Below, in pieces: positions 10,000 through 54,961 of a stretch of 64,000 bases of DNA (position 1 is the stretch's first letter; every line of letters starts with the position of its first letter). The DNA lies in NCBI GenBank assembly GCA_973895155.1, contig OZ316893.1, forward strand, positions 17,825,836 through 17,889,835, written 5' to 3'. The notes under the pieces were generated by a model. The model ran no database searches. It was not told the DNA's origin and saw only the letters and a program-made list of their open reading frames with translations. The stretch is from Marsupella aquatica. Taxonomy: Eukaryota; Plantae; Marchantiophyta. A program made the position numbers and the translations under genes.

Positions 10000-10017
10000 T
10001 GGCGCCGCTGCCGGGGA
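10000..10017 (+). promoter_or_regulatory. Primer binding site (tRNA-Asp type)
   Basis: TGGCGCCGCTGCCGGGGA, as in Athila-like elements, located 20 nt after the LTR-terminal CA. Confidence 0.8.
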
Positions 10018-10234
10018 ATCCTTCTTCTTGTTTGACGACACGAAGGAGGGGAGCTACGTCTATTGGGAGTTCAAACCTATCAACCACAACGCAACTTGCG
10101 ACGGTTGATACGTGAGAAGTTTGTTGGTTACTTTGTTATTGTACGTCAACCACAACGCATCGTGCGACGGTTGATGTTTACAAATATTGCTTTCTGAGAC
10201 ATTGGTGTAAGTTTGGAATGCAGGTCTCAATGGG

Positions 10235-21744: not shown

Positions 21745-21980
21745 CCGAGGAGGTTTAATCCAGGTTAATGGTAGACTCAACCTTGGGTTGTAACACTCCC
21801 CCTTGGTTGTACCATGGAAACATGTTATGGTGCAACCAACAAGTTTACCATATATGTGGAGTGTAATTGTTGTATCTTTAAGATGTGGCCTAATGAAAAG
21901 GAGAAGACATTGGGGGGGATGTAACCTCATTAAAACCTCCCCTATTTTCTTTTGGGAGGAAAGAGTGTTACCATCCCTCA
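21745..21980. repeat. Conserved non-coding block shared with 45598-45830, probably subterminal DNA of the MULE-like module
   Basis: Both copies share taacactcccccttgg and gggggatgtaacctc.ttaaaacctccccta.tttctttt..ggaggaaagagt.ttaccatcc, in the same position relative to the ParB-MTase gene. Confidence 0.75.
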
Positions 21981-23981
21981 TATTCTATAGTATAATGGAA
22001 TGTAATTGGTTTGTGAGGTAAAGTTTAAGTAGACTATGTGGTCTTTAGGCTCTTTTGAGGTGAAGTGTAAACGTAAGTAGACTATGTAAACTAAGGTAAG
22101 TGGTGTATGGGTCCGTAAAGCTATTCGGCCAAGTTAGGTTGTTGTAAAGCTAGTCGTAGTTGATGGGGGATGGGCGTAGTCGGAAGGAGTCGATCCTCTT
22201 GCTCGTTGCCCTCCCTTGCTTTTGCTCTGGTTGACTCGCTGTCTCCGGTGCTCCGTGTCTCTGTCTGTGGAGAAGAAAGATCGGCAGTGAGGCTCGTCCT
22301 TCGTTTGTGAGGAAAAAGAGGGGAAATGTTAAGGGCTATGGATTGAGGCAGCGACGCATGGGCTGCATTATCGGAATTCAAGTTGAGGAGTAGCATTCTT
22401 GATGGTAAGATCTAGCCTATAGCCCTGTATATTCCTTTGTTGAATCATCTGTGTTTGTGCGTCTCCTTTATTGCCTTTGGTCTGTTTTAGTGAATGTAAA
22501 TATGGTGTCCTAATTTTCTGTGTTGCGATCTGTTCCAATGTGCTGCTGGGTCTGGTTTCCAACTAGCTTCGTGAGAAGCGCCAGTGCAGTCCTTTGGATG
22601 CAATCTATAGAGTATGTCTTCATAGTTCTGCTGCCGTTCATCTTTTGCCCGATTGAGTTGATTGTAAGATTGCTGTCGATTCCAAGATTAGCTTTGTAGT
22701 CCGGTTGCGTTTGCTTCTAGTTATTCCTCTGTGCACTTGGTCTTCCATGCCAAGATTGAATCTATTTTCCGACAAGCTCTGTAATCCCTTCAACAGTTGA
22801 GTGGTGTGAGGGCGTGCAAAGACAACGAGAGCTTTGGAAAGTTGTTGCGACAATGCAGAGCCGGTGACAACATTTTGTGAGTGTTGCAAGGTGGGTTTTC
22901 TTCGTTTGCTCTTCTATTCTTGGCTATCAGTCGATTATTCACCCCATCTCGTAGTGCATTTTCTTTTGTCTTTGTCTTTGGAATCCCTGTTGGGACACAG
23001 TCGTAGTAAGCGGAAGAGGTGATCAGGTCCCAGGTTTATCTTTTCCTGAGGTTTGTGTAAGAGCCGGGATCTGTATTTTGGGACAAAGTAGTGTATGGGA
23101 GCTGCAGGGCATCTTTTTAGGGTATGAGATTTTGGTCATGGTACGTAGTGGAATAAGATGGATTTGCGAACTAGGAGCTTGGATTTACAGAGCTAGGCCT
23201 TTGAAAACAGAGGTATTCTATTGTGCAAGCAAACAGGAGTTTTGCTAGCGAGGACAGCAGGCTAGCGAGGCAAGTTTGCGCGTAATCTGAGGGTAGTTAA
23301 GGCGCATTCCCAAGTAAGATTGTCAATATATACTGTGAAACAGTTAAGGAAAACGAAAATGCAGATACTTAAATATTCACAAACTCAAAAATCGAGATCT
23401 TCACTACACTGAACTGAATGAAAAGGCATCATCACTGTCAACAAAACCAGGTCAAAAAACCTTTCACAATCCATCTTTAATAAAACTTTGGTATGACAAA
23501 TATCTTCTAGAATGAGATTGCATCTGAAATTGACCATGAGTCATTGAGAATCCTCTGATTCCAAATCATCTGAGGAATTACTAGGATCGCTACTGGACTC
23601 CCTATCAGTCTCCTCAGCTGAACCGTCAACATACTATGCTACAGTCCCAGCCTCATCATCTATGAACTGAGGGCAGTAAAGGGCTTTCCGAACACCCCTC
23701 ACTGACCGCAGACCTTTCCCCTCCCAAGTCAAAACGACGGGCGCTTCATCAACCTCCTTTGCAGTCTTTTCAGCATAGCATGGAAGCGCAAATCCCTTGT
23801 CAGGGGTCACAAGAAAATGATCCTCGTTTTCTTTCCGAAGACGGCATCTCTCCTCCGAAAACCAATCCGAACGCCTATCACTGAAGAAATCACCAGAATC
23901 GGATCAATACTAAACATCCAAAAATTCTACAAACAAAAGAAAAACACCAAATAGGGAGTTCTACATCAAAGGCCAAGTGCT

Positions 23982-26900
23982 TTACTCCAGGTCGAATTCA
24001 TCCTTCTCGTCTGAAGGTCCTCCCTGATCATCTCCTGGGATGGTGAACTCATCATCAGACCCTTCATCTTTGGGATCATCGTTCTTCGGGTCTGCGGCCC
24101 CTTTCAACTTCTGGGCATGTCTATCCAACACATTTGCCAAAGTTCTTTGTGCACACAAATGAAGAATGTCTCGATCTTCAACACCCACAACAAATCTCCC
24201 AGCGTATTCCCCAGCGGCAAAAGCACTTCCATCTCCAACAGTCCAGTCAATGACAATGTCCTTTGGCAAAGTAAGGATCTCCATTACGGCTTGCATGAAC
24301 CCAACTGACAATCTATTGGAACCTGCGAAAGCCGCCCTGGGACTGGGATCAGTTTTTGGGTAGCAAACACTCAACATCGATTTATGGCGGGCATCCTCCG
24401 AGGAAGTCATTGGAACATATCCTATATGTTTTGGGACTTTTGCCGAGAATTCCACCTTGCAGAAGACATCCATAATGAGAGTAACCACCTGAATTGAAAA
24501 CGATAATACGTAAGAAATGGGCACTTTTGGTTAGCGAGCTCGCTAGCAAAAATTGCACAAAAATATGGAGGATAACTTACCTCGATGTCCATATCTGCCT
24601 GATACAAAGGAGATGAAAGCAAAACCGAATACTGCCGGACATGTTTAAATTTGTTCTTCTGTTCGACTGCAGAAAAAATTTGCCTCATATGGTTATAGTC
24701 GGAGCTGTGAAGAACTGCGACATAACCATCATCGGCAAGCATCGGACGCATGACTCCAAAGAAATAATATGGTAATTTCTCACTCCAAACATTCCACTTC
24801 GGGACCTCCCGGTCTGTGACGCTTGTTCGATGACCCGTGGGAAGGAATATGAAACCCAAGTGAGCACCAATTCCAGCATAATTTTTTCCGTTGATCATCA
24901 CGGCGTTTGGGTGTTCGCTCGATTTGCTCATTCCAGACAACCACTGATCCGCATCGCCCATCCAGGGAGGTCTTACTTTCCTCTGGCTAATTGAGTTTGC
25001 AGTTTCCGTGAGATTGCTCTTCGCCAAGAAATGCCTCTCACCGTCCTTCTTAAGACCACACATTCGTGCTACTCCTTGCGCGACGCATGCTTCCTCCTCA
25101 TCCGAGTCGGAGAGAATTTGGACATTGCGCTTCCTCTTTAAACGCTTGATTGAACCCAGGTCCACAGCAGATTTTGTTGTGACCTCAACATCAGGAGACT
25201 TGGGTTCTTCTCCATCATCCGCCCCACTCTTCAAACTGCCAGAGGCTGCAGCCTTTCTCTTCTCTGAAAAACATGTTAATGTCAGACAGGTGACTAAGAC
25301 AAAATTACTCCGAATGAGGTATGAAAAAAAGAGGAGAAAAAGACTTACTTTGCTTCCCAGACAAGACTGATCCATCTTTGGACGTGTCCTTCACCGGCAC
25401 TTTCCGAGGTCTCCTCGATCTACTCCGGTCCACAATGGCAGCTACACCAAGAACAACTTTCTCCATTGCATCACATCCGCCAGCCTCGGCTTCTGCAGGA
25501 GCTAATTTGGACTCTGTAATGTACGACTCTGGTATCAAGCCTCGATTTATCATATGAAATGCTGCCTTCTCTGCTGTGTCAAATGTCACTGCCCATTTGT
25601 CTGATTCTAAATACCATGGACAGTGAAGGACTTCCCACTCACTCATCTTCCTTGGAGCCTCCACTCCCTCACATGGGTACATCGAGTACTCTCCATATTT
25701 AACAGAGGTTGGATCCTCTTTCACTCCTGCTATCCAAGGCGAGAAGCAAAGCAGGATAGGACCACCAATATGTTTTGTCAGCAACTTCTCTATCCACAAA
25801 AAAATGATACGTATATCTCTTCGCCCTCCTCCGAAAAAGTGAGATGTCAATCTTCTCACCCGACTTTGGTGGCCAAATCTGTTTGAAAAAACGAGATTTC
25901 ACTCTCGTTTGGAAATCTTCAAAGTCCTCCTCTATGTCAAGGATCAGCGATGGCTTTGTCTTCTCAGACGAAGTAAGGATCCTTGCATCTGGAACAGTTG
26001 GGATCAACTCTGAAATAATCTCAGACATGAGCGAAGAACAAATTGACTCAACCTGCTCCCAAACAGCCCATCGGTGAAGCCAAAGTTTTGTTTCGCTGTC
26101 CGAGAATTGACCAGGGTGGAAGTACTTCTTGCGAAGCTCAGGTCTGCATTGTGCCTCGAGGAGTACACATCTGAGCTGGGGAGTCAACGATGAGACACCC
26201 GTAAATAGCCTCGCACGATCGAGACCACATGACACATTACCCCTTCCTTTATCGTCTGTTCGTTGGGCCTCCTTCCTCTCATGTTCGCAGTAGTTGTGCA
26301 TCTCAACACACTTCTGGAAAAAGTCACCAAACTCAGGATTCAGGAGAGGTCCAATCTTTGGCACCTTCACATTCCAATCTGCCAGTTGCTCCTTCATCAT
26401 GTCTTTGACTGCCATGTCTTGCGCAGCTTTTGAAAGAGGTTCTCCTTGCGCTTCTTTCAACTGAAACTTCTTCTTCAAATCTTCCGTCTGCGCTGCAATA
26501 TTAGCAGCAGACAGAATGTACGTGCAGGCATCGAGTGTCATGTTCTTCGAATACCAAGCCGGTTTCCTGATATTTGCCATCTTCTGCTGGAAAAGTTTGT
26601 AGTTGTCTACATCGATGATATCTTTGTATACAGAAAGGTCATTACTGAGAACCTTGTGGACTCTCTCTACTTCAAGGACCCAAGAATTCTCAACGTGACA
26701 TTGAGTCAACCTGAGCAAAAGAAACAGGTCAGCGAGATCGCTAACAAGAGGAAATGAAAGAATTTTATATACAATTCACAGCTTGAAGGAAAAGAAACAA
26801 ACCTATTCAGCGCATGCATTGCCGACTCAATCTGCATGAATGAGTTCTTGTCACCCTTGAAAATTCGACAAACAACTCGAGGATGATATTTGACATCATG

Positions 26901-27506
26901 GGGATTCTCGTCCGCAAGCTGCATCCATGAGTACAGACGATGATTTCCATCGAAAACACAGAACATTTTGTCTTTCAAAATTTTGAAAGCTTCGTGAGAA
27001 TCACATTCCCTCTCGAATTCTTCATTCTGAAGAATCCACATGTCATCCCACGACTCCCGAATCACATCCTCGCACATCTGGACAAGGCCATCTTCGCCGG
27101 TCATTTGGACGTAAAATCGAGGCGCATCTTCGATGTATCCCTGCGTCTGGAATTCATTCTTGAGTGTCTCGATCGTAGTCGAGTTAGTTTGTAAGGACCG
27201 AACGATCTGCATGTTTCGCATTCTGCAAAGGGGAATCCTCGGAGGAGCGAGCGGGAATCCAAATTCGTCATTTCCAAAAGGGAAAAGATGGCGATTGATG
27301 ACAACAAAATAGGGTTCTGAAGCTCCAGGTTGAAACGTAGGATTCACAACATCTACTTGGTTCACCATCTTGGGCCTCCTCGGTGTTTTCAATCCCGCAT
27401 GGAGTGCCTTCTTGTTCACTGTAGACCTGGTCTCCCTTCGGCTTGACTCGACTGACTTGAACGATCCTATTGATGACAAGCTCTCGGGTGAAGACAATGG
27501 CTCCAT
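23982..27506 (-). pseudogene. ParB/Srx-domain and amino-(N4C/N6A)-methyltransferase-fold fusion gene (copy 1, one frameshift)
   Basis: GT-AG introns at 26802-26711, 25348-25264 and 24580-24489 join the ORFs in frame. ParB-like region RIPLCRM...VRSL...GY...FCVFDGNHRLYSW. MTase motif-IV region HLGFIFLPTG...VPKWN...MLADDGYVAVLH and motif-I region DIVIDWTVGDGSAFAAGEYAGRFVVGVE. There is a 1-bp frameshift near 25750 and a possible extra 3' exon at ~23543-23880. Confidence 0.78.
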
Positions 27507-27892
27507 CAAGGGGTCCGTGAAGTGATAAGGGTATCAACAGGTCAAGGTCGAGGGCGACACGCTTTGCGAACATAAAAACACCCGAGAATCGATCTTCCAA
27601 TCAAAGACAGAATCATACCCTCGTCTGTTGCTTTCACCTGAATGTTGCGCCCAGTCGTGAAAAGAGATACAAATATTCTGTACGACTTTTCTCGCAATCA
27701 TTTTTCAGACAACGTCAGGTATACATGTACTTCCGGAAATACGAACCACCGAACTCACGACTGAAAGAAAAGTATCTAATGACAATGAGACAGGTGTCCA
27801 GTACTGTACCGTACCGTTGACATGTAGGTACCCGTTGACCAATTCCAACGGATATAAATGGTCACAATGGTCTCTTATGAGGAAATGTTTTT

Positions 27893-28005
27893 GCTAGCGA
27901 CATCGCTAGCCAAAAAATGACCACTAAATACATTAACTCCTGAAGGGTGTTTTGTAAGGATTTGAACAATTTTACTTGGTTCATTGAGCTAGCGAGATCG
28001 CTAGC
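27893..28005. promoter_or_regulatory. Two perfect GCTAGCGA-NN-TCGCTAGC palindromes in the divergent promoter region
   Basis: GCTAGCGAcaTCGCTAGC at 27893-27910 and GCTAGCGAgaTCGCTAGC at 27988-28005. Function is inferred. Confidence 0.7.
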
Positions 28006-28181
28006 TTTATCATTCCGCAAATAGAGTCATATAAGACAAAATAACGGTCAGATAACGGGAATAAGAGGCATTTATTAAATAAATACGTTGAGTCCAACAC
28101 CTACACAAGCACATTTCCTCATATGTATTTGGAGAAAGAAGAGAGCGAAGTATCTCACATTGTGGATTGCTGTAGACTGTA

Positions 28182-31100
28182 ATGTCCAAAACTTCCAGCA
28201 TGTCTTCATTGGGATCAAAGGTTGTGATCGAGAGAAAGACGACGGGTGATGTTGTTGTTCTGGATGTTCCGGAGAATACTATTATCTCTGTCAAGGAGTC
28301 TTTTCTCTCATCGAGGTTTGGGCTTTTGAATGATGATTTCATCTGGAAGTTGTTCGTTCTTTACTCTCGGGATGGATCCAGAAGTCACGAGGTGTCGGAT
28401 AATGGTTCAGGAATATTGCCAGAAAGAGCTTGGGACCTAAAGGGTGGTTCAGATGTAGAGCTAGTCTCATGTAAGGATGACATTGCACATATCAATGTTT
28501 CCGATCCAGAATCCCCTACTCGACCGTCACCTGCAGTACCAGAAATTATTGACATCTCCCCTGAGAGTGTGGGTAGGGATGTCTCTTCTGTGTCGACAAA
28601 GTCTTCTGAGAAATCCGTTTTTGAAGCAGTGAGTCAAAACGAGTTTCAATCTGAGCCAGTTCTTTATCGAGTTAGTGCATATGATGCCTTTCTCAATATT
28701 ACTGGGTCAAGCGAGTTGGCAAATTTCCGTAGGGGAAACGATTGGAAGGAGATTCAAGTGCAGACTTTGCCCACTTCATACAACGGAAACTGCGTTTTTG
28801 AGCTTCCTCCGGTGGAAGGTCAATTTCGTCGAGGATATGGTCTTCAGGACATGGATAGGGATAATGACGGCTATCCATGGACGAGACTTCTCACAACTTC
28901 AGCTAATCTCAAACCTCGCAATCACTGGTCTGTGTCAAAAGTCAGATGTGCCGGTGTACTTGAATGCCAAAATCTGGTCTGTAGAAAGTTGAAGCACACC
29001 GGTTCAAAAAATGACTCTTCCTTCCGAGGAAAGGGACAATTTACTGAGCCGTTTCATCTTGGTGAGCTTGTGGAGGAAGGAGGGTTGGTGTGCGGATTCT
29101 GTGAGGAGAGGCCTCTCTGCATCCGTGAATGTCCGGCTAAGCTTTTGTACGTCTATCCTAAGCCGTCTCTTGAGTCAAATGTTGCGAAACATATGTCTCG
29201 ATTGGCTGTTCACATGGGTTTCCATGACCACGTTGTTTGGAAGGGGAAATCTCGATTGGCAAAAAAGCAGGCGGAGGAGATAGTTTCTGGTGTTCATAAA
29301 GCGAATCCTGTGTGTACGCCAGGGCGTGTTCTTAACAAGTCTATAGGAAACCTGGTTTCTCTTTTGCATCCAGAGTCTTCTTCAGAACTATCAAAAGAAG
29401 AAGAGAGAGAGATTTGGGAATCGATGAAGGTTGTGTCCACTGTTGAGAAATTCCAGGCCATATTCCGGAGCGTGAAAATGTATAACCCAAAAAAGGGTGA
29501 GTTGGATTCTCTTCGTGAGATGCAAGCACGGAATAATTTTCCTTACGTTCAGAGGTACCTTTTCCCTGGGCAGGGGAGCAAGACCGATAGGGCTCATGTC
29601 TTCAAAATGAGTACAAATGGCCCAGGTTCTGGTGTCGATATTCTCAGGCAGATGAAGAGTGGAGGTGAGCTGGAAGGAGCATGGGTCAGTTCTGATGTAA
29701 TGCGGAGAATAAGCACTGGGTGGCTGACTTTCAGCGCCCATGTGTACGACCATAATTACAGGTCCCTTTGTATCATCTTCACTTGTGAGCTCCGTGCGGA
29801 GGACTCCTTATCTCTTGAAACCGCATGGAGATATATGATTGAAGTTGCCTCTGATCATGATGTGCATGACCCACTCATTGGAGGATTTATTGCCGATAAT
29901 GCCGAGGCTGGATGGATCGCCATTCGAAATGTTTTTTTTGGAGGTGTCCGTCACCCACAGAAGGAGCACAGTGACGCCTTTCACTTTGCTCAATCTCTTC
30001 GTCGTCACACATTGGAGGGTATTCGGGAAGATCGCCATCGAGAGCACTATAAACTGTGGGAAAGGCTGAGAACAGCACCAACATATGTTCAGGCCTACCG
30101 TGTTGCTGACGAAATCCATCGTTGGTGGAAGGAAGGAAACTGCTATGCTGGGAAATTGAAGTCTCTCCAAGGATGGTTATCTTGGTGGGTCGTGAGGTGG
30201 AGGCAGTGGGGGAACTTCATCCGCGTTGTAAGTGTCCAATTTCATTTCTCTTTGACGTCATTGTTTTTGCTAGCGACCTCGCTAGCATATCAGGTCTGAC
30301 TGGGGACTACTTTTTGCAGACGCAAACCGCAATGGAGTCAGCCTTGATGCCAAATTGTACTGGAGCGGAATCAGTCCATGCATCCATGAGATCCTGCCAA
30401 ATGAAGAAACTAGTGGGATTGATTGAAGCATGTGAGGTGGACCAGAATCGTGTTGCGGGGCAAATTGCTGCTTTTACTGCCTACAGTGAAGGTGTTCATA
30501 GAGGCCAGGGGCCGACCATTTTTGAATTAGCATATAGGAACGCCGATGCTATGGGATCCATGGATGCTTACGAAAAGGCAGCAAATCTTTTGCTTGAGTC
30601 TTCAGCTAAGTATGAATTCTATAGAACAGTTCCATTACATGGCGATCTCCGAACAACATCCACGAAGAGGAAAGGGAAAGCTTCAGCTGTAATCCACGAG
30701 AATGACTCCCACAGACATGACAAGGTGTCACGCACAACAGCTTCTCCTTCAGGACTAAAAAGGCGTAATCTCTATCCTGAATTTCGCTTCGTCAATGTTT
30801 CGGAGACTTCTACGGACCCAGAAGTAGCAAATAATACAACTTCGGCAACACCTGTTGGAGGTTGTTCTACTGGAGTTATGCATATTTCAGATGATGATGG
30901 TGATGATGCAAGTCGTAATGTCAATGATACCGTGAAGATGGGGACTCAACCTCAGTGTGATGTCGGGGATGACCATCGGGATGCCCCCCAAAGGATCCCT
31001 TCCATCCGAGAGGTTGATGTTCCTTATGGGACCTGGCATCTCAGGCGGAGCGGTAGAGGTGCTAGACCTGTTTGCAACGGGTCGGTTGACCGAAGCGTTT

Positions 31101-31894
31101 TTGGAAGAGATGAATGTAGAAATCTCATCAAGGAGACTGGATGTAAGTCCGCGCAAGGGGGAATTGTTGGAGTCGCCATTCACGGGTTGCGATTATCGTC
31201 TCCACATCGCCAGTTGTTGTACTTCTGTCCTAATAATAAGTGTCACAAGAGCCGAGGACGCAGAACTCTAGCTCAACTACCCCCCCCACCCGAGTCGCTC
31301 AAGGTTCAGCGTGGGACTTGCCTCTCCCATCCCGAGATAGAGTTTCTGCTGGGATTAGGATTCCAGATCAGTGGACTCTCCTATGTGGATGCAAATCAAG
31401 TTGGAGAGTTCCCGTCCCCCAATCGGGTCAACCTACGAATTGATGTTAACTCATTCCCCGAACAAATTGATCTAACTAATGTGGACCGTCGGTTGAAAAC
31501 TCGAAATGGTAAGGGTGCAAGACAGCGTTTCAGCAATACTCCAGAGTTGCTCAAGCGCATCATTTCCGCTACACAAGAATACATGAGAGTTGTCGGAAAT
31601 GAGAAGGTAACTACCGGAAATGGATGGGGTTGGAGATACTTGATCGCCACTCACGAGACTGATTGACAAGTTCCGCACACATATTGGGTGCAAATCTGTT
31701 GTTTCCCTTCGTGTTCTTGTGAAGACTTTTATAAGAGGCATACACGAGGGAAACCATACATGTCTTGTAAACATCTGCTGTGGGTGTATTTAAACAAGTT
31801 TTCACTCAACCTAGAGAAGGACGACCTTGTCAAACAGCCAATTCTGACTGTTGGGGAAGTGAGGAGTTTAATTCCGTTACAGATAGGGGACTAG
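28182..31894 (+). pseudogene. Mutator-like (MULE) DDE transposase with GCM-like zinc finger and C-terminal SWIM finger (copy 1, one premature stop)
   Basis: Exons 28182-30227 and 30320-31894 give ~1206 aa. Motifs: CAGVLECQNLVC...CGFC...CPA...GFHDH; D in WVSSDVM; D in FIADNAEA; SDAFH at the CxxH position; E in PNCTGAESVHAS; SWIM CSCEDF...CKHLLWV. In-frame TGA at 31664-31666. Confidence 0.85.
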
Positions 31895-32517
31895 TCGTTT
31901 ATTGGAGATGCTAATTATAGGGTGGTGGGATGGATTACTCGAGTTTGTGGTTTCACAAATATCAATTTGTTTTCACCGAGTGAATCATAATGTTAGCGAG
32001 GTCCACAATGGTAACTTTTATGGTGTTTGAGTTTTCTGTTTATGGTTAGCGATCTCTCTAGTCTTAGGAAGTCTACTGCATCCTGACAGAAACATCCTAC
32101 TTTCATACGTGTTAATCTATCGACAAGTTTCTATAGAGTTCACGGTTTGATCATTAAAATGACGCCAGTTTTTGGCTAGCGAGATCGCTAGTCTGATCAA
32201 CGGAATTTAGGACAGGATGTGACAGGATGTTTAGGGTTTAGGGAGGGAAGTTTCCCCTGAAGTTGTTATGGTAATACTCCATCGAATTGATTATCAAAGA
32301 TGAACACAGTTCTATACTAGCGATATCGCTAGTCTGGGAAAGGTCCAACAGTGACTTCAAAATAAAAGTACTATGTGCGAAATGGCATTCCAGAGAAACA
32401 CATAGAAATGAAAGGACCACCCAAACTTTACTTCTCATACATATTGAAAGTATATGAGGACATGCAGTTCGCTTGTAACTACAAAAATTTCAGTAAATCC
32501 ACAACCTGACTCTACCC

Positions 32518-32946
32518 TCAGGGGCTGGACGCCTTCCATGCATCGGAGTCAGTGTCTGACTCTGAATCGTAATCCGAAGAGGCGAGGCGTTCCTCGGTCC
32601 AGTAGTCATAGATCTCCCTGTCAATCCAATACTGATCCTCTTCTGCGAGCCTCTTCCTCTTCGATACAACCTCGCGCTGTGTGGTATCCACCTTTGGCTT
32701 CGGTGGAGACTTTGCTGCTGGAATTAACTTTGGAGGAGTAGGTGTTCTCCTCAATGATGATGACGATCCAACAGATTGACCGAGTTCGGTTGGGACACTG
32801 CTGCCTAAGGAGACCTTCATAGTCTCTGCATCGGGTTTCTGCTTCGGAGGAGAGTCATCTTCAAGCGGGCCATCTGTCGCCGGGTTGTAACGACGGATCT
32901 CAAGTCTCCATTTCCCCTGAGGAGGATTGCTTGGAACACCAGACAT
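32518..32946 (-). CDS. Small low-complexity ORF with an acidic tail, convergent with the transposase; possible third gene of the module
   Basis: 142-aa ATG ORF ending QYWIDREIYDYWTEERL...SDYDSESDTDSD, preceded by an AG acceptor-like site. No recognisable family. Confidence 0.35.
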   Translation of the reverse strand: MSGVPSNPPQGKWRLEIRRYNPATDGPLEDDSPPKQKPDAETMKVSLGSSVPTELGQSVGSSSSLRRTPTPPKLIPAAKSPPKPKVDTTQREVVSKRKRLAEEDQYWIDREIYDYWTEERLASSDYDSESDTDSDAWKASSP

Positions 32947-35430
32947 TTCTCTGCACTTACGAAACCCAAACAGTGATTAAAGAGAACAGGATTCAACAAA
33001 TGGAAACATTATTCACGGTGGAATACGATGAATATCATGCCTTGTCGGAGAGTTCTTCCCTTAAAACAGCTCAAAGAATAGACCCGTGCTTACCTGAACT
33101 AGATCTGGAGAGTGTTGAGAACTTGGAACACTGATAGCAGTTCCGAATGAAAGAGATCAAGTCGGACGCGGTGGAAGTGATCGGGAGAATGATTTGGAAG
33201 ACTGGTGGTTTTTGGGCTAGCGGATTTGTTTAAGTGGACGGTTCGACGCCTTGGATTCGAGTCTGGTTCGAACAGTAAGTGTCCCGTTCACTTGCAAGTG
33301 ACTTAATTAGTGTCCAAACGGCCTTAATCCTCCTTTCCTCGGTAGTAATGACACATTGATTCTTTTCACGCGGGAATCGCGAAGTACTTTTTTGTTATTA
33401 CTCTTCCTCGGGTGGGAATTTTCACATGTGGAAGCCTGTACGTGGAGACCGTACCTCGTATGAGTGGCTCAATGTGTTGGCATCATTAGACTAGTGATTT
33501 CGCTGGCCTGAAGATATGTCATTTTGATCTATTGCGTTCACGGGACTAGAATCGTCCATGGGTAGCCGTCTATATTTATTGATCGAACAGGGTCTCCATG
33601 CTAGCGAGGAATATTCCAGACCTTTTTTGGGCCCCAATACAAGGTGACATCTTGCCCGTGCGAGCAAAAATTCTACTATTTGCTCGCACGTTACAATTAC
33701 CCTTGAAAACATATTTTGCTTCTTCATCATTTCTTCCCCTCGTGTCACTATGCACCAAATAATCCACGGAGAAATTGTTGTATTCTATAAGGAAGTGAGG
33801 ATTGGTGACAATATTGTGATACTTTAGGACGTGTTTGTGAACATTTGCTGGTGTAGCGATCACCCGGGAATATGTGTTTTATAGTTGGAGTTTCCGATTC
33901 TCCAACTAAGTTGCTGACCCTTCCTCGGCCTGCTTCATCTTGCAAAAGATTTGCTTCTAGCTCACTAATAAGGCGGTAATCGTAGTAAGCGTGACTATCA
34001 AATAATTTCAGGGCTCTGAAGAGTCACCCGTGGTAGAGAAGAATGATCGTGAGAAAGTGTTTCAAGCAAGATCCTTTGGTTTTGCCTTGGGTGATAGCGA
34101 GCACATGTGTGTGTAGATAAATTCGGACGCTCACGGGTGAGAAACCATTGTGTTAACTATAGTATATTCACTTCATTCATGGGGAATTATACTACCACAT
34201 CGATTAGCATGTGCGGCGGTTATGTTCGTAGTCCATCAACGCAATATGATCTGCTCTGCAACGTCTGAATAACGACAAGCGCACAAGATGCCCCTTCATC
34301 CGCAGGGACTATACCGTCGCAATAGAGAGTGTTATTCGGTCTGAAGCTTCCTATCTGTCCATCACCAAATTAAGTATTCAGCTTGCTGCCGCTGTTTGCT
34401 TTTGAATTGATTAACGTGCATGTCCATTAAAGCGAGGACTTCATGCTCTACGTATAACGTCTGGAAGAGCTTTGTGAATGTGAAGTCCCATCAGGATGCG
34501 AACAAGGGATCCGGACAATATCTCTAACTTGTAGTGGATGTAGAATCCTTATATAAGTAAGCGCTTGGTTCATTGTTGTGTTCTTGTTCTAACATGCCCC
34601 TAAACTGACAATGCAACCCTTTTAGACTTGGGCTTGTTAGTGCATTTTTTTTTACTGAACCAGAGTATCATTCAAGCTCGGCCGCGCCCTAGAAGAGTTG
34701 TCGATCGTAAGAGCTGCAATGGCCTCCGATACGAGTTCGCGTTCTGAGAGTTGAGAGCATATCCACATGCATCAGACTACAATTTGACTCGGATCAAGGA
34801 CACGGGCGCAGATTGAGTCACTGTCCAGCCCCAGTACAATGGAGTCGAGGTCTTTATGTGACAAGACCTGCTCGTCCATAACAACTTTCAGTTTAGAGTA
34901 GTTAGGTCTCAAGCTCGCTGATCTTTGGCAGCTGGAGTGAAGCGATCCAGGTTGAATTGATAGTTGGTTTTGCAGTCCTCATTTATGCTAGCAGATTCTA
35001 GATCGACCGAGCCAACGATTGAAGGTATCCCATAATCGTGGCGTGGATCTTGAGTTTCATCGTTTCTCTTGGTATATTGGAAAGCCTAGGCATATCCAAC
35101 ACCTCTTTGTATTGGAAGTATCGATCTTGGCTATACTCCTTCCTCTTCGGTGAGTTGATAAATTATCTTCTCGGCTAGAATTTGCCTACAAAAGTTGTTC
35201 AATACACCCGGTCATCGTTTCTTTGCATGTTCAACAATTCGAATGACCTGGTCTGATCAAGTCTTGCTTCGGTGAACATCTTACATGCTTGACCGAGGTC
35301 ACATATATCCTTATTTTATTTCAATTGTTAATTTCCCAAAAGTTGTAAGTTTCAAGGACTTGGAGCATGACAGCTTTTGATTTAGGCTTGCTATAGTGTG
35401 TTAGTAACAATTGTCAAATGATTTGGACAG

Positions 35431-45597: not shown

Positions 45598-45830
45598 AGG
45601 AGATTAATCCAAGGTTAGGAGACTAAACCCTTTGGGGTTATAACACTCCCCCTTGGGTGTGTCATTTTTAGAGGGGAAATGGTACACCCATATTAGGTCT
45701 CCTAATGGTTAATCTGGTTTATATATTACTAGATTCTGAATTTTTGATGCTAAGTTTGTGGGGGGATGTAACCTCCTTAAAACCTCCCCTACTTTCTTTT
45801 GTGGGAGGAAAGAGTATTACCATCCGGTTT
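45598..45830. repeat. Second copy of the conserved non-coding block
   Basis: Aligns with 21745-21980. Confidence 0.75.
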
Positions 45831-45979: not shown

Positions 45980-48611
45980 CATTCGAAGATGTCTTATAGA
46001 AGACATCAAGAACCAGATTGAAAACCTGGAGGGAAGACAGAACAAAGATTTAGAAAATCAACCCAAAACTCAAAGAACTTGTTCCAGAAGGTGATTGCTA
46101 ACGAGGGTCGCTATCAAAATAAAAGTGAACTTACGTTAAAGTCAATTTTCTCTTTCCATAAAGGAGCCGGAAGCAGAATTGAGTATGACTGCGCATGCTT
46201 GAAAAAACCATGAGCTTGAGCGCACTATATATGGCTGAGGTGTGATTAAAATCATCACTATGAAGAACAACAAGGAATCCATTATCAGCAAGATACTGTT
46301 TGGAGATATTGAAAAAATGTGTTGGGAGGGATTTGTCCCAAACGTTCCACTCTGGAAACGTTTTGTCAGTAATGAGGGGACAGAGTCTAGTAGGAAGATA
46401 GACAAAACCTCAATCAAAACCTGTTCCCAGAAGGGATTTTTTGTCCAAAACTATCGGAGATTCCCTAAGGCCTCTCGACAAGAGACTCTTCATCCAAATG
46501 TCACACTCTCTAACCATGACGGTTTCTTCCTTTGATTGACAATTGACTTGGCTGAGTCAAGAAAACTTGACTTGAGAAAAATGTCTATTATCCTCTGCAA
46601 TAAACTCTATTCCTTTCCTCTCCAAACCAGAGTTTAATCTTGAATCGAATTCGGCCTCCTCATCCAAGTCAACAAAATTACGTTTCTTCTTTGTTTTCTT
46701 GGAGCTCCCCAAATCTGCCACCTTCTTTGACTTTCTTTTCTTACTAGTTTCCTCAAGAGATGCGTCCTCATCAGCATCTAGATTGGCTTCCTCTCCCGGT
46801 TGATTGTGTGAACTCAACAAGCACCTCTTTTCTGAAAAAGCACCGGGAGGTCAGAATGTAAACTTCAAGAATACATGATTCAAATATAACTTATTGATAG
46901 CGAGGTTTGCTAGCAATACTTACTTGTTCTGAGAGACTGTTGAGAAGCAAAAACCTTTTGAGACTCTGCCTTTTCAAGAACCCCAACTTTCACTCTTGAC
47001 TTTTGAGTGCAGTCGACACTCTCACCTTGCCTCAAACATACTTCCTCCATCAAGGCACAAGCCCTTTCTTCCTTCTCCACTGGACCAAATTTGATCTCAG
47101 ATAGAATATACAAGTTGGGCTCCTCACCCTTCACAATCTTGGTGTACGTCGATCTTTCCGTTTGGTCAAAAGCAGTTGACCACTAATCAATATCGAGGTA
47201 CCAGGGACAATTAAAAACTTCCCAAGCAATAAGGTCTCTTTTGGGGTGAGAAGCATCCACAGGATACATTGAAAAGTAAAGATATGTAACATTTTAGTCT
47301 GCATCTAGCCCAACGCTTGCCCACCCAGTAAAACAAAGGGGGTAACACCAAAAATATGAATCACTACTAATTTCTCAATCCACAAAGAAACGATAAACAT
47401 ATCGCTTTGCCCTTTGACAAATTACATCAACATCAATTTGTCACCCGACTTGGTTATCCAAATTGCTTGAAAAAACTTAGATCTCACACAAAATGCATAA
47501 TCCTTGAAATCATCAAGGATATGCTCCTTTCAAAGATTCAAGATCTTTTTAAGGTGTTGACTCTAAACAATCCTGAGGAGCACTTAATCCAATCTCATCC
47601 AAATAGGCTATCAGCAAATGGTTAGAAATGGATTCAACCAATGACCACATGGACCATGTGTGGCACCACTGCTTGGTCTCATTCTCGGAGAATCCCGCTG
47701 GATGAAACCATTGCTTCCTCAATTCTGGCTTACACTATGCCTCAATCAATTGACATCGAAGAAGTGGATCTAGAGTTGAGACAATAGTGTACATTAAAGC
47801 CCGATCCAATCCACATCCCAATGTTTGACGTCCTTCTCTCTTCTCCCTTTTGCAATACTCATACAACTTTGAGCATTTGGCAAGAAAACTTATGTATTCT
47901 GGATTCAAAACAGCTGCTAGTTTATTGCTGCGGATTGACCATTCTTTTAGCTGCGAGGCAAACATCCTGTTTCCCCTTCAAAATGCGACAAATCACTCAA
48001 GGATGATACTTTTTGTCATTGGGGAACTGCTTAGCAACTATCATCCATAAATATAGACGATGGTTCCCATCAGAAACCGAAAACATCTTGTCCTTAAGGC
48101 ACGCAAATTCTGGATTTTTGTCACATTCTGCTAAACCCAAACATCGTCCCAAGTTGCTAGAATATCTTCAGTGACCACAATCTCAGCGCCTTCTGCATCA
48201 CAAATGGGAACATAAAACTTTGCCAACTTGTCAACGTACCCATTCGTCTTGAACTTGGAGACTAGATTATCGATAGCTCCTGATTGCACCTGGAGCGACG
48301 TCACCAAGTCCATGTTCATAAGTCGACAAAGGGGAATCCTAGGAGGATCTTGCATGTCACCTCTTTCGTTCAAACCCAAACAAAAGAGAGTGACAAGCAA
48401 GCACCTTGGAGAATGCGTCTGGAATTTTGCTGCCTCCCATCAGCACACCATGTGTGTCTTGAGACATGACTGGTGTTCTCAGAGTTTTTAGACCTGTGAA
48501 AAGAATTTGTCTCTCTGCTGTCGATCGAGTCACTCATCTGCTTGAGTTTGTAGTCTATATAGAGGAGGCGGAAAAAGAAGTTTGGGAGTGCAGTGAAGAA
48601 GAATGATCCAT
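45980..48611 (-). pseudogene. ParB-MTase-fold fusion gene, degenerate copy 2
   Basis: PPRIPLCRLMNMDLV...KFKTNGYV...KDKMFSVSDGNHRLY, YFWCYPLCF...SMYP and GFVYLPT...FPEWNVW...YLADNGFLVVLHS. Many stops and deletions; the motif-I exon was not found. Confidence 0.8.
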
Positions 48612-49432
48612 TGGTTCACCAATGGGCTTGATACGGAGTGACCGTCGTTGGGTACGGATGACACCCCACGTACAAAGACACCGTACCAACATCCGCTCCT
48701 CTACTAACCAAGACACGTGAAGTCCAATGGAACGTTTGTAAACAGGATATAATACCGTCATTTGTTTCTAAACGGGATATAATACTATCATCTATAGCGA
48801 TAGCAACTGGAATTTGAGATGTGTCATACGATAATAGGAACAATATATACATTAATTAGTGGTACCAACGGATTCATTAACAACAATGTTGAGATAATTC
48901 CAGATGGTTTAACATAACCTAACCTAAATGCATGAAAGTTTAACATCAAATAAGGAAACTTTTAGAACACTTAAGGTGAACAGAAAACAATTAAAGTTAC
49001 CATTTAACGGTAACTTTTGGTAGCAACCCTCAATATCAAAATTATTCCATTTTAAAATCAATGAAACTAAACCCAAAACATTGCAAAATTTGTCAATAAA
49101 CCTCTAGAATTGGATATTGGAAACTATAATTTTTGATAGCAAAGGTCGCTATCAAAACTCGTTACCACTTTTTTGGAATTTAGAGTAGATTTTAGTGATA
49201 TTAGGTTCAATACAAATATTTTTAAGCATAGTTAATGATAGCGATGATCGCTAGCAAAAGTTATCGTTCTTTATTACCGTTGTATATCTGTTGGCAGATA
49301 CTATCCGTTACTGACCTTGTAAAAAGACTATAGGGGAATCCGATGGCTATGTACATTTGGTCGGTCGGTCTTTGGGTTGATTGGTCGGTCTTAGGGTTAT
49401 TTGGTCGGCCGTCTCTAAAGGTCCGTTAGTTC

Positions 49433-49487
49433 ATTGGTCATGTCGTACTTTGGTCATGTCGTACTTTGGTCATGTCGTACTTTGGTC
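49433..49487 (+). repeat. 16-bp tandem repeat
   Basis: ttggtcatgtcgtact three times within a tggtc-rich tract. Confidence 0.85.
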
Positions 49488-50461
49488 AGTCAGTTCTTTG
49501 GTTGGTCATCCCTGGAGGGTAGGTCCATATATTGAAGAGTTAATTTTGTTAGGTGTCTATTCCAGACACTTGCTGATTCACACTGTCTCGGATTTTGACA
49601 TTCCTTATTGTTGTCACTCTCATCTTTGGTCATGGACGGTTTGCAGAACATGAAGCCCAATAATGGTAAACTTCCCATTGAAGAGGAAGAGGAGACCACG
49701 GAGCAGGAGTCTGAGACGTATGTTTCTATCACTTTGGACATCCAAAATAGGAATAGCCTCCACCAAGTGAGGGAATGAGTCCAGGGGAGTGGAACATTCC
49801 ATGGCTCAGGGATGAGCCCACTCTTCCATTCGAAGATCGATTCTTCTTCCATGTTCCTTCCGATCCAGCCACAGTTTGGCCGCGTCGTCTAGAACTTTGA
49901 AAGCACAAGGTGTTGGGATCTCTTGATTTTCAGGACTCTAAATTTGCAAGCGAGAGCAGCCAAAGGCCTGTCTACAGAGCTCCAAGTAGAGCATTTAGGC
50001 ATAGGAGGGACCATGGTTTCACACAAGACATATACCGTCGAGGAGCTGGTGTCCCGGATGAAGAAATGTCTTCTTCTTTGAATAAGTTTTGTCCAGATCC
50101 CGACCAGAAGGAGTGAGATTCATATAAGGATCGATACCTGCAGATTCTATGTCTTTAGTCGGGCATAAATTAGGTTAAGATACTAAGACAATTTTGGTAG
50201 CAATCTTCGCTAACATCTAGTGTATGTTTTTTCACGGAATATATAAAGAGTTTTATGCTTGTCTTCGTGTATAAATTGGACATCCTAATGGATACAAAAC
50301 AAACGACAAAACATTTAATGCCACAATTATTACCGTTTCAAAATCCGAGAGTTGTTCGAGCTTTCAACGGACTACAATGAACAATTTAGGAATGAGAAAC
50401 ACCCCTTTCATTCTATGACATTGGCCAAGATTTCCATTTGGACTCTATCTACGTTTTAGAA

Positions 50462-53400
50462 ATGGCATCCCAAATCAAAATTGTGCGGGAGTCTACTGGA
50501 GATGTGATCTTTCTTCCTGTTTTTTCATTGAGTGGAGAGCAAATAGTGAGTGAAACTTATCTCGGTCAACGACTTGGCTGGGAGGGGTCATTTATCCAAG
50601 ATGTACTTGGGAGGAGGGAGGATTCCATTGTGAGTCCTGCCCGTATTGAGCCTTCGAGTCTCCATAGCATCCAACATTGGAACTTGAAAATTGGATATGT
50701 GTACTCTATGGTTACTAAAAATGATCCATCCCCCGAGAGAGTAGAAGCAGACATTGATGTTTGTGAAATCAAAATAGAGTCTCCAGATAAAGTTTCCCCT
50801 ATATATCGAGTGAGTGCTTGTGACATGATATTGAGGGTTAAAGGCTCGAGCAAGATATCTTGCTTTGTCCGTAAGTTCTTGGAGTCGGGCGAGGATGTCA
50901 AACATGTTCAATGTCTTCCCAAGGATTACAATGGGGACTCGATATTTGAGCTTCCTCCAGTAGATTCATCCACTAAAAGAGGATATGAGTTAAGATACAT
51001 GGATTGAGAGAATGAATGCTTTCATTGGACCTGAATTATTCTAACTTCTGCAAATGTTTTTCCAAAAGATTTGTATCAGTTCGTAAAGGTTTGATGCTCT
51101 GGGTCAATTGAATGTCAGAATGGGAAGTGTGCATTCTTAGATAAGGGCAAAGGAAGGAATCAAGTGTCCTAGGCGGGAAGGGCAAAAGGAGACGCATGCA
51201 CAAGACTGGGGAAGCAGTTTCTCCCGGAGGAATAGTATGTTTTCATTGTGACAAACCACCTGTATGTGTGGAGACGTGTCCCGCACTAATGTTTTACATG
51301 TACCCACATTCGTCGATGGATAAAGAAAATGTGAGATTCATGTCAAGGCTTGCAATGCATGTCGGATACCATGTCCACCCACCGAATAGTATTGTTTCGA
51401 GGGAGGCCATGATTGCTGTAGAGTCGGTCATCCGAGACCATCATTTAGTGAACCCCTGGCCACATCAGCTCAACTAAAAATTGATGCAACGGAGTCATTG
51501 ATGGCACACTTGGCCTCGGAGAGTGCCGCTGGGATTTCTGCCTAGGACATTCAGGATATTTGGGGCTCATTGAGTGCTCTTGTGTCCAAAGAGAAGTTCC
51601 GAGCCATCTTGCGGAATGTGAAAATGGAGAATCCCTTGAAAAGTGAGTTTGACTCAATTTGGGACATGCAAAGGAACATTCATTTTCCTTACATCCACAG
51701 ATTTCTATTCCCTGGTCAAGGCTCAATTACAACTCGAGCTCATGTTTTCAAGATGAGCGTAAAAGGTCCGGGTTTTGGATTGGATATTCTTCAAAAAATG
51801 AAAAAAGGGGGTTCTCTTGAAGGATCATGGGTTAGTTTTGATGTTATGCACCGGATTACTACTGGCTGGCTCACATTTAGTGCGCACGTTTATGATCATA
51901 ACATCCGTGCCCTTTGTGTTGAGCATAGACGACAATCGCAACGGCAAGCCCATGGACCATTCAATGCACAAGAATCGACACACAGAGATACGTGGTTCAC
52001 CTCCACATGAGGCTACGTCCATGGGAACACACACAAGCTTTATTGCACTCTAGGCCGACCGACCATACCAAGCATCCACAACGCAAGCTCTCTGTATCTC
52101 TCAACTAGCTCCGTAACAATGAGCCTGAGTTCCCCCTCTCCAAGCAAACACCGCTTGGTTATAGAGTGTGCACAGCATGACTAACCTAACCAAGTCTGCG
52201 ACTAAGGTTAGCCTTAACTCATAGTACAATTGTAACTCTAGACCTAAGAGTAAATCCTAACACTCTACACAATATTTACTTGTGAGTTGAAGTCTGAATG
52301 TTGTGAATCATTGTCTACCGCTCGGAGGTTGATGGTAAGTGTCGCATCCAAAAATGGTTTGCACGACATTACCATCCATGGTTTCATGGCATACAATGCC
52401 ACCGTTGGGTGGAATGCGGTTTGGAATGTATTCTGGCAAGGTCTGTCTAATCCAAAAAAAGAGAGGTCTGATGCTTTTCATTTTTTCCGATCACTCTGGA
52501 GGCATACCTGTGAAGGTATTTTGGAGAAAAATCATGATGAGCATTATGCTTTGTGGGACTGTTTGAGGAACGCCTCCACGTACGTCAAAGCTTACAGAAT
52601 TTCTTCAAAGATCAAGAAGTGGTGGCAGTCTGGAAACTATATTCGAGGGAAACTTTGCTATCTACAAGGATGGATTTCCTAGTGGGTCGTTTGATGGAGA
52701 CAGTGGGGGAACTATATCCGGCTGGTATGGTCTTAATCACAAATCTATATTTTATGGCCTGCTCATCAAAATACTGCAAGCGATCTTTGCTAACATTGGT
52801 TGAATCCATTACTTACGTTGATTTATACTGATGTGTTTTGTTTCAGTCGGCTGACGCCCTGGAGTCTGCAAGAATGCCAAATTGCACTAGTTTGGAAGCT
52901 GTCCATGCGAGCTTCCCAACCCAAAAACAAAGTGACTCTAGTGGAGGCTTGCAAAGTTGACTCCAATCGTGCTGCCTTCCAAGTTGCCTGCTACATCGGA
53001 TTTGAGTCTGGTGTGAGTAGAGGTACATGACCAACAATTTTTGAGCTTGCATTTTGCCATGCAAATATGGTTGGTTTTGCTTCCGCTCATGAGAAAGCAA
53101 CCAATTATTTGATGGAAGCTAACGGGAAGTTTGATCTTCTACGGACCGGGCCATTAAATGGTGATTTGCAAACAAAATCTACAAAGAGGAAGGGAATTGC
53201 AAGTGATAAAATCTTTGATCAGGACTCTCATTGACATGACACGGTTCTTCTTACTTCCCCAGCTAGGATTGCATCAAGGAGACAACATCTAAACTCTACT
53301 GAGTTTAGTCCTAATTATACGAGAGGGCCGCCAACATCAATGAATCGGCCCGAGGGAGCTTCGATACCAGATGTTGTAAATTTATCTGAGAGTGAATTGT

Positions 53401-54413
53401 TTGAGGTCCTTTGGACTCTTCCCAGACGTGTTGCTACTTGTTCAACTCCTGTTCCGTCCCCCACACCTGTAGTCCCACAGCCCAATTCCGATTCAAGTGC
53501 TACATTGACATGCCATGAGGTGCGAGTTCCCCAGGGGAGTTGGTATATAGGTAGAATGTCCTCCAAAGGGGTCGGCCCAAAGTGCTATGGGTTTCTTGGT
53601 AGGTCTGCAACTCGAGAGGAATGTCGGAATTCTGTGAAAAAAGTATCGTTACCTGACCCAAGGGGACATGTGGCTATTGTTGTTTTTGCTGCACATAGGA
53701 TTTTTGGCTCAAACGTACCTCAAGTTACTTGGTTTTGTCCAAATAATGTTTGTTCTGGAGGAAAGCCACGATGTCTCATTGTTTCCTTACCACCAATTCC
53801 TGATGTTTTGCCTGTTATGCTATGGACCAATCTTGCTAGTGAGGAAATTACCTTCCTCATTGATAAAGGCCTTTCCTTGGATTTAGGCATTAAAACTCAT
53901 CCCTCTGGAAGAGAACATATGCCAAATGTCTCCCCACCATTGAGTGCCCCTTCACCTCTAGATTTACAAATTAATGTCAGTACATATTGTGAGATGGTAA
54001 ACATGAATGACCCGTTGCATCAATTTTCAAGTCAAAATGGGAAGTCAATCCGCATGAGGGTCACTCTTTTGTTAGAGCATTTTAAATGCATCAAATCATC
54101 AGAGGAAGAGCAACTGCGAGTGTTGACGGAGAACATTATCAAGTTTGGAAATGGTTGGGGAAAAAAAAAAATTGTTGCAACACACAAGACAGATGGAAGG
54201 ATACCAAAAAGATATTGGGTTCAAGTCTGTTGTTTTCCATCATGCTCCTGTGATGATTTCTTCAATCAACACACAAGAGGTCTTTCATATGTTCCGTGCA
54301 AACATTTATATTGGGTTTTTTGTTATTTCTTCAATGTTAGTGTTCGAGAAGAAATTTATGTCAGCCAACCTGCCCTTAGCTTGTCCGAGGTGAGGTATAT
54401 TTTGAAGATGTAG
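50462..54413 (+). pseudogene. GCM-MULE-SWIM transposase, degenerate copy 2
   Basis: Colinear with copy 1: FELPPV, CFHC...CPA...GYHVHPP, RAHVFKMS, WVSFDVM, RSDAFHF, intron ~52725-52846 and YWVQVCCFPSCSC...CKHLYW. Interrupted by a solo LTR. Confidence 0.88.
51917..52262 (-). mobile_element. Solo LTR related to the Copia element at 86-5556
   Basis: Reads TGTTGAGCATAGACGACAATCGC...TAAATCCTAACA. The flanks CTTTG and CTCTA are a decayed CTCTG TSD, and removing the LTR restores ALCTIFTCELK. Confidence 0.92.
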
Positions 54414-54961
54414 GGAAATGTTGTATTTCATGAAAATGTGATTTTCATGCCTTGCCAAGAATTATATTCGGCTTATTATGAAAGTTTTTTTGACTTCCTT
54501 GAATCTATTTTATTGTCCATGTATGGTTAGAGGCTTTACACCATGCCAGGAAACATGAGATTTTTTTACTGATACGAGCAAAACCTTTCCTCATATCAGG
54601 AAAGTTTTACTGTTATCAGCAATGTTTTTACTCACATCAGGAAAAACATTCAAGGAATTGTCATCCTCCATACTGTTGTGAGCAACACCAATAAAAAAAC
54701 ATTCAAAATTGTCATAAAAGTGGAGTGCCAAGTCTCTCCAACCACTTAAAAGAGTGTTCAAAACCAATTTTTATAAAAAAATGGGGCATTGCCCTAACCT
54801 CAAAAGGCAAATTTTGAGCAAAATATGTAAACAATACTAGCGCCAAGCGCTAGCAATGATCCAACCCTATTTTACAAAACCAAACATTGTCTAATACACT
54901 CATTCTCAATAAGCTTCTGTATATGATAATGCCGTTGGAAACCGACAAAGTACTGACCAAT

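Follow-up and report, generated by a model that had tools for sequence, protein, structure and literature searches.

A liverwort transposon helper with a probably inactive methylase fold, and palindromes that it may bind

In the portions available of two 2025 papers on algae, ParB helpers were proposed to bind and chemically mark the elements that carry them (PMC12477816; bioRxiv 10.1101/2025.02.11.637652). The Ectocarpus transposon Sola1-1_Ec32 has, on the opposite strand, an accessory gene for a protein of 1104 amino acids with a ParB-like and an N4C/N6A methyltransferase domain, and similar ParB-methylase proteins are cited in the same passage for green and red algae (PMC12477816). In the excerpts on the Plavaka elements of Bostrychia, the ParB-like helper (PAG2/PAG3) adjoins inverted repeats, which are its proposed binding sites, and homologues of the accessory proteins are also mentioned on Mutator elements of Chondrus (bioRxiv 10.1101/2025.02.11.637652). 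The motifs of VANC, the accessory anti-silencing protein of Arabidopsis VANDAL elements, are described in the part consulted as family-specific, non-coding and tandem-amplified non-palindromic words of 8-9 bp (PMC5735166). The locus described here comes from the liverwort Marsupella aquatica and lies in a stretch of 64,000 nucleotides (contig OZ316893.1, positions 17,825,836 to 17,889,835; hereafter the window). Its DNA is eukaryotic, with copia- and gypsy-type retroelements and spliced genes. One element in it, copy 1, is a high-copy eukaryotic DNA transposon with relatives in liverworts. It carries a transposase-like gene and a divergent helper gene, the product of which ends in a methylase-like domain.

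Motif IV and the fold of the methylase-like domain

An earlier note on this DNA had proposed that the domain is a methyltransferase fold with a non-canonical motif IV, GFIFLPTG in copy 1 and GFVYLPTR in a second copy, where (D/S/N)PP(Y/F) is expected. Both motifs were located as claimed (Table 1). The note had also argued that a change shared by two copies cannot be recent decay. This argument is weak, since both copies in the window are broken, and a check of the family was therefore needed; what speaks for the claim is that the change of motif IV is family-wide. An exhaustive protein search with exon 3 gave 45 proteins, and 44 were aligned together with the exon of the window; 40 of the 45 rows cover motif IV. 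P0039, a repetitive chance match, was left out of all alignments. None of the 40 rows has D or N at the first position of the motif, and none has an aromatic residue at the fourth. The first position is occupied by A (11 rows), F (10), Y (10), S (4), C (3), R (1) or T (1), and the later ones by L (33), P (38) and T (30) or N (5), giving the pattern x-L-P-T/N, which is retained down to about 25% identity. An intact motif was sought elsewhere as well: there is no [DNS]PP[YF] in any frame of the copy 1 gene, and a wider catalytic pattern matched once in 51 homologues, outside the methylase-like domain. According to the part available of the work on the rotifer N4CMT, motif IV holds the target base or amine with its first and fourth residues, motif X contacts the ribose through its histidine, and the carboxylate of S-adenosylmethionine (SAM) is bound by a serine and a threonine in motif I (PMC10406627). 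Substitution of SPPY by APPA abolishes the activity of N4CMT, according to the passage concerned (PMC8885841). Judged from the sequences, canonical catalysis by the methylase-like domain is very unlikely, and the pseudo-enzyme proposed in the earlier note is supported by the loss of motif IV across the family.

The SAM pocket is altered as well. Motif I of copy 1 (VIDWTVGDGS...GRFVVGVE, 24254-24177), previously regarded as retained, is there and is only partly kept, G-S-G-S/T having become G-D/E-G-x. Among the 6-7 rows covering these motifs, G-S-G of motif I is replaced by G-[DE]-G, with aspartate or glutamate instead of the serine in 6 of 7 rows; HPTxKP of motif X is replaced by G-x-x-R-[LMV], with glycine or serine instead of the histidine and a hydrophobic residue instead of the lysine. 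In 6 of 7 rows the glutamate of motif II and both glycines of motif I are retained; in the Riccia protein P0051 the first of these glycines is lost. SAM binding by the domain appears doubtful, because motif X and the SAM-carboxylate serine are altered. Thus, the SAM-binder option of the earlier note is weakened by these replacements, while its DNA-binder option is supported by the palindromes described below. Close to the old active site W69, N70, W72, G92 and H104 are conserved in most rows.

Of 20 matches that were looked up, 5 were named as Calypogeia fissa and 1 as Riccia sorocarpa, and none of the 22 matches with a source seen was named as algal. Since Calypogeia and Riccia belong to different liverwort classes, the degenerate motif IV must be old. 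Two long Riccia proteins have the N-terminal, the middle and the methylase-like parts in common with the helper. Neither exon 3 nor exon 2 gave a match in word-indexed protein searches, an alignment profile (A2) found none among PDB sequences, and the first metagenome scan gave 0 relatives among 39 pattern matches. The helper gene is kept by selection, as indicated by its codon positions, by the variants near motif IV and by the three-part architecture in Riccia. Conservation between the helper genes of copies 1 and 2 was 0.45, 0.60 and 0.34 at the three codon positions, the third being the least conserved. Among close copies no variant was listed within 24828-24859, that is, at motif IV (4 runs), and the nearest five are synonymous.

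On sequence profiles and structure models, the domain is a beta-class amino-methyltransferase fold. A 36-row profile of the family was aligned end to end and colinearly with 7 phage DpnA-like beta-class methylases at 94% (local) and 97% (global) probability, which placed FIxLPTG on IIADIPYN and GSNRLS on HPTQKP; 12 column shuffles reached at most 0.26%. The permuted order, motif IV before X, I and II, is seen in the family both in this alignment and with Foldseek. PF01555 was matched in 4 of 8 homologues (best E-value 2.7e-5). The structure model of the Calypogeia protein P0008 has a confident first half and a poor second half; all 9 Foldseek matches of this model at E<=0.001 were chains of CcrM, MboIIA, M1.HpyAVI or M.BceJIV. 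Using VIA-align, the confident half matched the half of class I methylases from strand 4 onward: Trm14 with Z 9.2 and a root-mean-square deviation (rmsd) of 3.1 (82 aligned), MboIIA with Z 6.8 over 124 residues and CcrM with Z 6.4 over 131. A homodimer prediction of the methylase domain scored 0.00, the alignment not being used in it, and gives no evidence either way.

Palindromes in copy 1 and its relatives

A recurring palindrome, TAGCGA-N2-TCGCTA, was first exposed by an inverted-repeat scan. With at most one mismatch it has 8 sites in the 64-kb window, all of them in non-coding DNA of copy 1, where 0.04 were expected and none of 100 shuffles reached 8. Among 223 perfect 6-bp inverted repeats it was the top class with 6 copies, the maximum of the null being 1-3 (60 runs). 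All 21 half-sites in copy 1 are non-coding, though 61% of copy 1 is coding. None of the 8 full sites is within 1.7 kb of the estimated ends of copy 1; intron 2 of its helper gene is without a palindrome.

Variants of the site were observed in the relatives of copy 1. The palindromes of copy 2 have an N3 spacer and stand in helper introns 2 and 3, between the genes and in the transposase intron. In copy 3, a partial transposase-like gene, TAGCGC-N3-GCGCTA occurs at 54838 and, within a 69-bp tandem repeat in the homologous transposase intron, at 56531, 56600 and 56669. In an independent metagenome contig, L019, the transposase of which is 67% identical, the homologous intron holds TAGCGC-N2-GCGCTA three times, once with a mismatch. 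Between them, the four subfamilies (copies 1-3 and L019) have every combination of arm base (A or C) and spacer length (2 or 3). The arms are conserved and the bases of the spacer vary, the length of the spacer being fixed within a subfamily. Peptide read-through matches to the palindrome were found in 5 of 51 homologues and were not counted. The intron-retaining prediction P0019 holds NDVVSN three times, which is compatible with a fifth variant, TAACGA-N2-TCGTTA, known from the peptide alone.

Candidate roles of the helper protein

The reading we favour, at a probability of about one half, is that a likely dead methylase fold ends a helper protein which likely binds, as a dimer, the palindromes of its own element and thereby keeps the copies active. 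We infer binding, dimerisation and anti-silencing by the helper as follows. The two-fold site with its fixed spacer suggests a dimeric binder, and the subfamily-specific variants of the palindrome argue for a binder that is encoded by the element. Terminal binding is described in the available part of a preprint for the AtMu1 transposase, which peaks at terminal repeats, and for TnpA (bioRxiv 10.64898/2026.08.24.746577). Since internal, non-coding, tandem-amplified sites fit the targets of VANC better than such terminal binding, the helper is favoured as the binder. The ancestor would have been a prokaryote-type ParB-plus-methylase fusion. Its N-terminal and middle regions would read the palindrome as ParB reads parS, and the dead methylase fold may stay as a DNA-gripping or scaffolding module and not as a writer. 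Loading at many internal sites would shield the element from host silencing or activate it, as VANC does for VANDAL, and changes of arm or spacer would let each subfamily regulate only itself. We propose only tentatively that this is a parS-like self-recognition derived from a bacterial ParB-methylase fusion, in which a clamp loads at the subfamily-specific palindromes, present in almost every intron and spacer, and spreads along the element, and the dead fold shields the element from host silencing. If true, anti-silencing would here have arisen apart from VANC and TnpA, in a system with a two-by-two code of arm (A/C) and spacer (2/3).

The DGNHR motif of exon 1 recalls the ParB/Srx domains. 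In the Atlas, exon 1 (26805-27290) matched clusters at 0.93-0.95, with ParB_N on 11% of the members and DUF3723 on 31%, and the PHROG scan gave the ParB-like PHROG 1033 at an E-value of 0.092. Exon 1 had no Pfam match and no match when searched in phages, and its structure model, with a predicted local distance difference test (pLDDT) score of 36, was unusable. From its sequence, the ParB-like assignment of exon 1 is only a lead. The Atlas link of exon 1 to fungal DUF3723 clusters (score 0.95) hints that DUF3723 is the same kind of domain.

Several results weigh against the favoured reading. The binding of the palindromes by the helper is only putative and the transposase is equally available as the binder; in the part of the preprint at hand, activation of cognate copies is achieved by the AtMu1 transposase on its own (bioRxiv 10.64898/2026.08.24.746577). 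The ParB profile test, in which 4 rows of exon 1 were compared with 9 phage ParB domains, failed (hhalign probability 0.16%, or 0.22% with an insertion removed, whereas the best of 30 shuffles gave 5%). A helix-turn-helix was not identified either. The palindrome sites also fold as RNA hairpins. As to the domain, the counts for motifs I and X rest on 6-7 rows, and 7 of the 15 listed variants are non-synonymous, all just upstream of motif IV. The motif IV half of the profile alone reached 10% probability, in the same register. There was no PF01555 match at the curated cut-off of 26.7 bits, the best of the 8 homologues having 24.7 and exon 4 having 13.1 bits. The pLDDT of the C-terminal half of the P0008 model is mostly under 60, and the Foldseek matches have an rmsd of 13-23 A and TM scores of 0.24-0.30, the high rmsd being due to this poor half. 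The best VIA rows are tRNA methylases, and only for the first half.

The methylase fold could be dead and the palindromes nevertheless be bound by the transposase, the helper acting otherwise, e.g. as a partner of the transposase or as a chromatin adaptor. This we consider possible, though unlikely. It is in line with what the excerpt says of the AtMu1 transposase, which binds and activates cognate elements without an accessory factor. Also, in L019 and copy 3 the sites were seen beside transposase sequence only, the helper gene not being in view, and the ParB assignment of the helper is unconfirmed. However, the AtMu1 peaks are terminal, whereas all 8 full sites here are internal, in introns and between the genes, like the VANC sites in the part of that work consulted.

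A repurposed active enzyme, in which L-P-T-G, W-N-x-W-D and G-[DE]-G form a new site for group transfer, with SAM or a related cofactor as the donor and DNA, RNA or protein as the recipient, is improbable. It would explain the strong conservation around the old active site (the five residues named above) and the retention of the motif II glutamate (6 of 7 rows). We take G-[DE]-G to recall the aminopropyltransferases that use decarboxylated SAM, for which the literature search found no support. However, both target-base residues are gone in 40 of 40 rows, the first position of motif IV drifts, as a catalytic residue would not, among seven residues (A, F, Y, S, C, R, T), and the Riccia protein P0051 is without the first glycine of motif I.

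Still less probable is that the palindromes are RNA hairpins or the footprints of a small mobile repeat, unrelated to the helper protein. Of 8 sites tested, 6 fold at -10 to -14 kcal/mol, and many of the sites are intronic. However, 5 of the 8 copy 1 sites are outside introns, the conserved arms go with varying spacer bases and a spacer length fixed in each subfamily, and no full N2 site is present outside copy 1 in the 64 kb. Plain pseudogene decay of an active methylase, which the two broken copies of the window might suggest, is hardly credible in view of L-P-T/N in 40 rows down to about 25% identity and in two liverwort genera.

For a helper that binds its own element, the four natural variants of the palindrome are exact candidate sites, and their specificity could be tested by swaps in a tractable plant lineage. 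If the reading is true, it would mean a new route of evasion of transposon silencing and a compact, site-targeted chromatin tool.

The locus, its copies and the known systems

The helper gene has four exons on the minus strand with GT-AG introns, which were predicted by splice signals together with the spliced homologues in Calypogeia and Riccia; about 1084 amino acids are implied, and it is transcribed away from the transposase-like gene. Motif IV and motif I are in separate exons with a 92-bp GT-AG intron (24489-24580) between them. Exon 1 is 35% identical to Riccia P0051 over 86 amino acids and exon 2 is 26% identical to Riccia P0050 over 309; the Pfam, PHROG and Atlas scans placed exon 2 in no known family. 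The frameshift of exon 2 in copy 1 is one extra base upstream of the methylase-like domain, and contigs without the base at 25748 are present in 4 of 4 runs. Candidate D, D and E residues are seen in the transposase-like gene, among D, D, H and N-x-x-x-x-E motifs, and its end, CxC...CxH, is SWIM-like; in copy 1 it has an in-frame stop at 31664. We take it to be Mutator-like from these motifs, which Pfam does not confirm: the scan gave no MULE (Mutator-like element) match, and SWIM only at an E-value of 0.48.

Table 1. Positions of the main features in the window
Feature	Position	Strand	Remarks
Copy 1 of the transposon	22800..34100		approximate extent (~11 kb); contig depth drops near both limits
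Helper exon 4	23982..24488	-	altered motif X, motif I (VIDWTVGDGS), motif II glutamate, acidic tail
Palindrome	24532..24545	.	helper intron 3
Helper exon 3	24581..25263	-	acidic/basic linker and methylase motif IV-VIII half
Degenerate motif IV, GFIFLPTG	24833..24856	-	copy 1, exon 3
Helper exon 2	25349..26710	-	middle region; one-base frameshift near 25748-25760 in copy 1
Palindrome, 1 mismatch	26730..26743	.	helper intron 1
Helper exon 1	26803..27506	-	N-terminal domain, DGNHR motif; ParB-like as a lead only
Two palindromes (27895, 27990)	27895..28003	.	between the divergent genes
Transposase-like gene	28182..31889	+	two exons, 28182-30227 and 30320-31889; points away from helper
Palindrome	30271..30284	.	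transposase intron (30228-30319)
Three palindromes (32047, 32177, 32318)	32047..32331	.	downstream of transposase
Copy 2 helper gene, decayed	46000..48650	-	GFVYLPTR at 46409-46386; N3-spacer palindromes in introns 2 and 3 (46898, 46099)
Copy 2 intergenic palindromes, TAGCGA-N3-TCGCTA (49137, 49239, 50198)	49137..50212	.	
Copy 2 transposase-like gene, decayed	50460..54410	+	2-mismatch N3 palindrome at 52778, homologous intron
Copy 3, partial transposase-like gene	54838..56903	-	TAGCGC-N3-GCGCTA sites; transposase fragment itself 55.0-56.9 kb

Contigs from 4 public runs accumulate, with many variants, at 22.8-34.1 kb, and some of them span internal deletions; compared with copy 1, the deletion joints 23067-33807 and 23200-33703 were each seen in 2 of the 4 runs. 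All this is expected for a high-copy transposon family. Of 8 runs, no RNA run was listed with a match, and this tells nothing about expression. In the portion consulted of a Mutator survey, Mutator-like elements have 8-11-bp target duplications and occur with or without terminal inverted repeats (PMC6446971). At the ends of copy 1 neither a terminal inverted repeat nor a target duplication was found in a 300 x 300-bp search, which gave a single 8-bp match. A 66-bp repeat, 92% alike at 21913-21976 and 45760-45825, lies just past the 3' side of both helper genes; as an end of the element it was ruled out, as contigs join it to many other flanks and it is without an inverted partner. With its high contig depth and varied flanks it looks like a separate small high-copy repeat. 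Two extra reading frames in copy 1, both on the minus strand, at 23545-23900 (118 codons with one stop) and 32521-32946 (142 amino acids, open), are possible accessory genes; they matched no Pfam family, and a second copy of them is absent from the window.

The divergent pairing of the helper and transposase-like genes is seen in both copies that keep both sides, the pair of copy 2 (46.0-54.4 kb) being decayed. The copy 2 helper has 13 stops in 6 aligned pieces, one of them immediately before GFVYLPTR, as well as frame breaks, and its exon 4 match ends after about 25 codons. The CpG ratio is 0.74 in copy 1 and 0.44-0.89 elsewhere, which does not separate age from protection. The rest of the window includes other elements. 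A gypsy-type element (5995-20670), with a gag-pol open reading frame of 2132 amino acids at 10235-16633, is flanked by near-identical blocks (5995-9979 and 16598-20670, 97-98% alike), each holding a coiled-coil-like open reading frame of 618 amino acids; these direct repeats are unusually long and gene-bearing. The truncated copy 3 is adjoined by a second, decayed gypsy-type element (57100-64000, minus strand), which is 67% alike to the first; the CpG ratio of this second element, 0.89, is the highest of those measured. A copia-type element has repeats resembling long terminal repeats (86-452 and 5118-5556), and a related 256-bp piece (51917-52172) is inserted in the copy 2 transposase.

Comparison with Sola1-1_Ec32, made by description only, shows a similar arrangement: an accessory gene on the strand opposite to a DDE transposase, of similar length (about 1084 and 1104 amino acids), with a ParB-like N-terminus (here a lead) and an amino-methylase domain, its product being proposed to act on its own element. 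In the passage on Sola1-1_Ec32, however, the domain is predicted to write N4-methylcytosine or N6-methyladenine and no inactive site is named, and a count of the string 'palindrom' in the main text gives 0; in the present family the loss of motif IV is general, the transposase looks Mutator-like and the relatives are in liverworts. With Plavaka, as far as the excerpts describe it, the locus has in common a ParB-like helper (again a lead here) and inverted repeats as putative sites. There, however, ParB is fused to a 2-oxoglutarate oxygenase, the methylase is on a separate SET-fused gene, and the repeats are tandem arrays beside PAG3, whereas here single sites are spread through introns. Like VANDAL with VANC, the present element looks Mutator-like, with an accessory gene, and has family-specific motifs in introns, intergenic and terminal non-coding DNA; for VANC, in the part consulted, binding and hypomethylation are shown, here both are inferred, and no sequence link to VANC was found or tested.

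The order of motifs (IV-VIII, X, I, II) and the fold are those of CcrM, M.MboIIA, M1.HpyAVI/DpnA, the rotifer N4CMT and Marchantia DN4MT1. Unlike in these beta-class enzymes, D/S-P-P-Y, HPxxKP and G-S-G-S/T are all replaced here. The gp24 of phage AcaML1 is a fusion of ParB_N and a methylase, and Marchantia DN4MT1, in the excerpt of the Marchantia 4mC preprint, is a host gene that keeps TSPPY. Precedents for a dead fold are the inactive methylase domains of METTL14 and of the DIRS1 retrotransposon, the latter transposon-borne; they belong, by the part available, to other methylase clades, element classes and architectures (PMC4738411). Neither ParB nor a methyltransferase is mentioned in the main text of the Mutator survey (PMC6446971). 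In the literature covered (subscription papers, Iyer et al. 2011 and supplements being outside its scope), neither a land-plant case, a family-wide dead site nor intronic subfamily-specific palindromes were found, and no description of the family. Iyer et al. 2011 reportedly treats the green algal cases, for which the algal papers cite it.

ParB-plus-methylase transposon helpers have thus already been reported in algae, as far as the portions consulted go; what is new here is the likely dead enzyme, the land plant and the co-varying sites. The architecture is kept in two liverwort genera while the methyl-writing site is lost, and this points to binding rather than marking as the conserved function.

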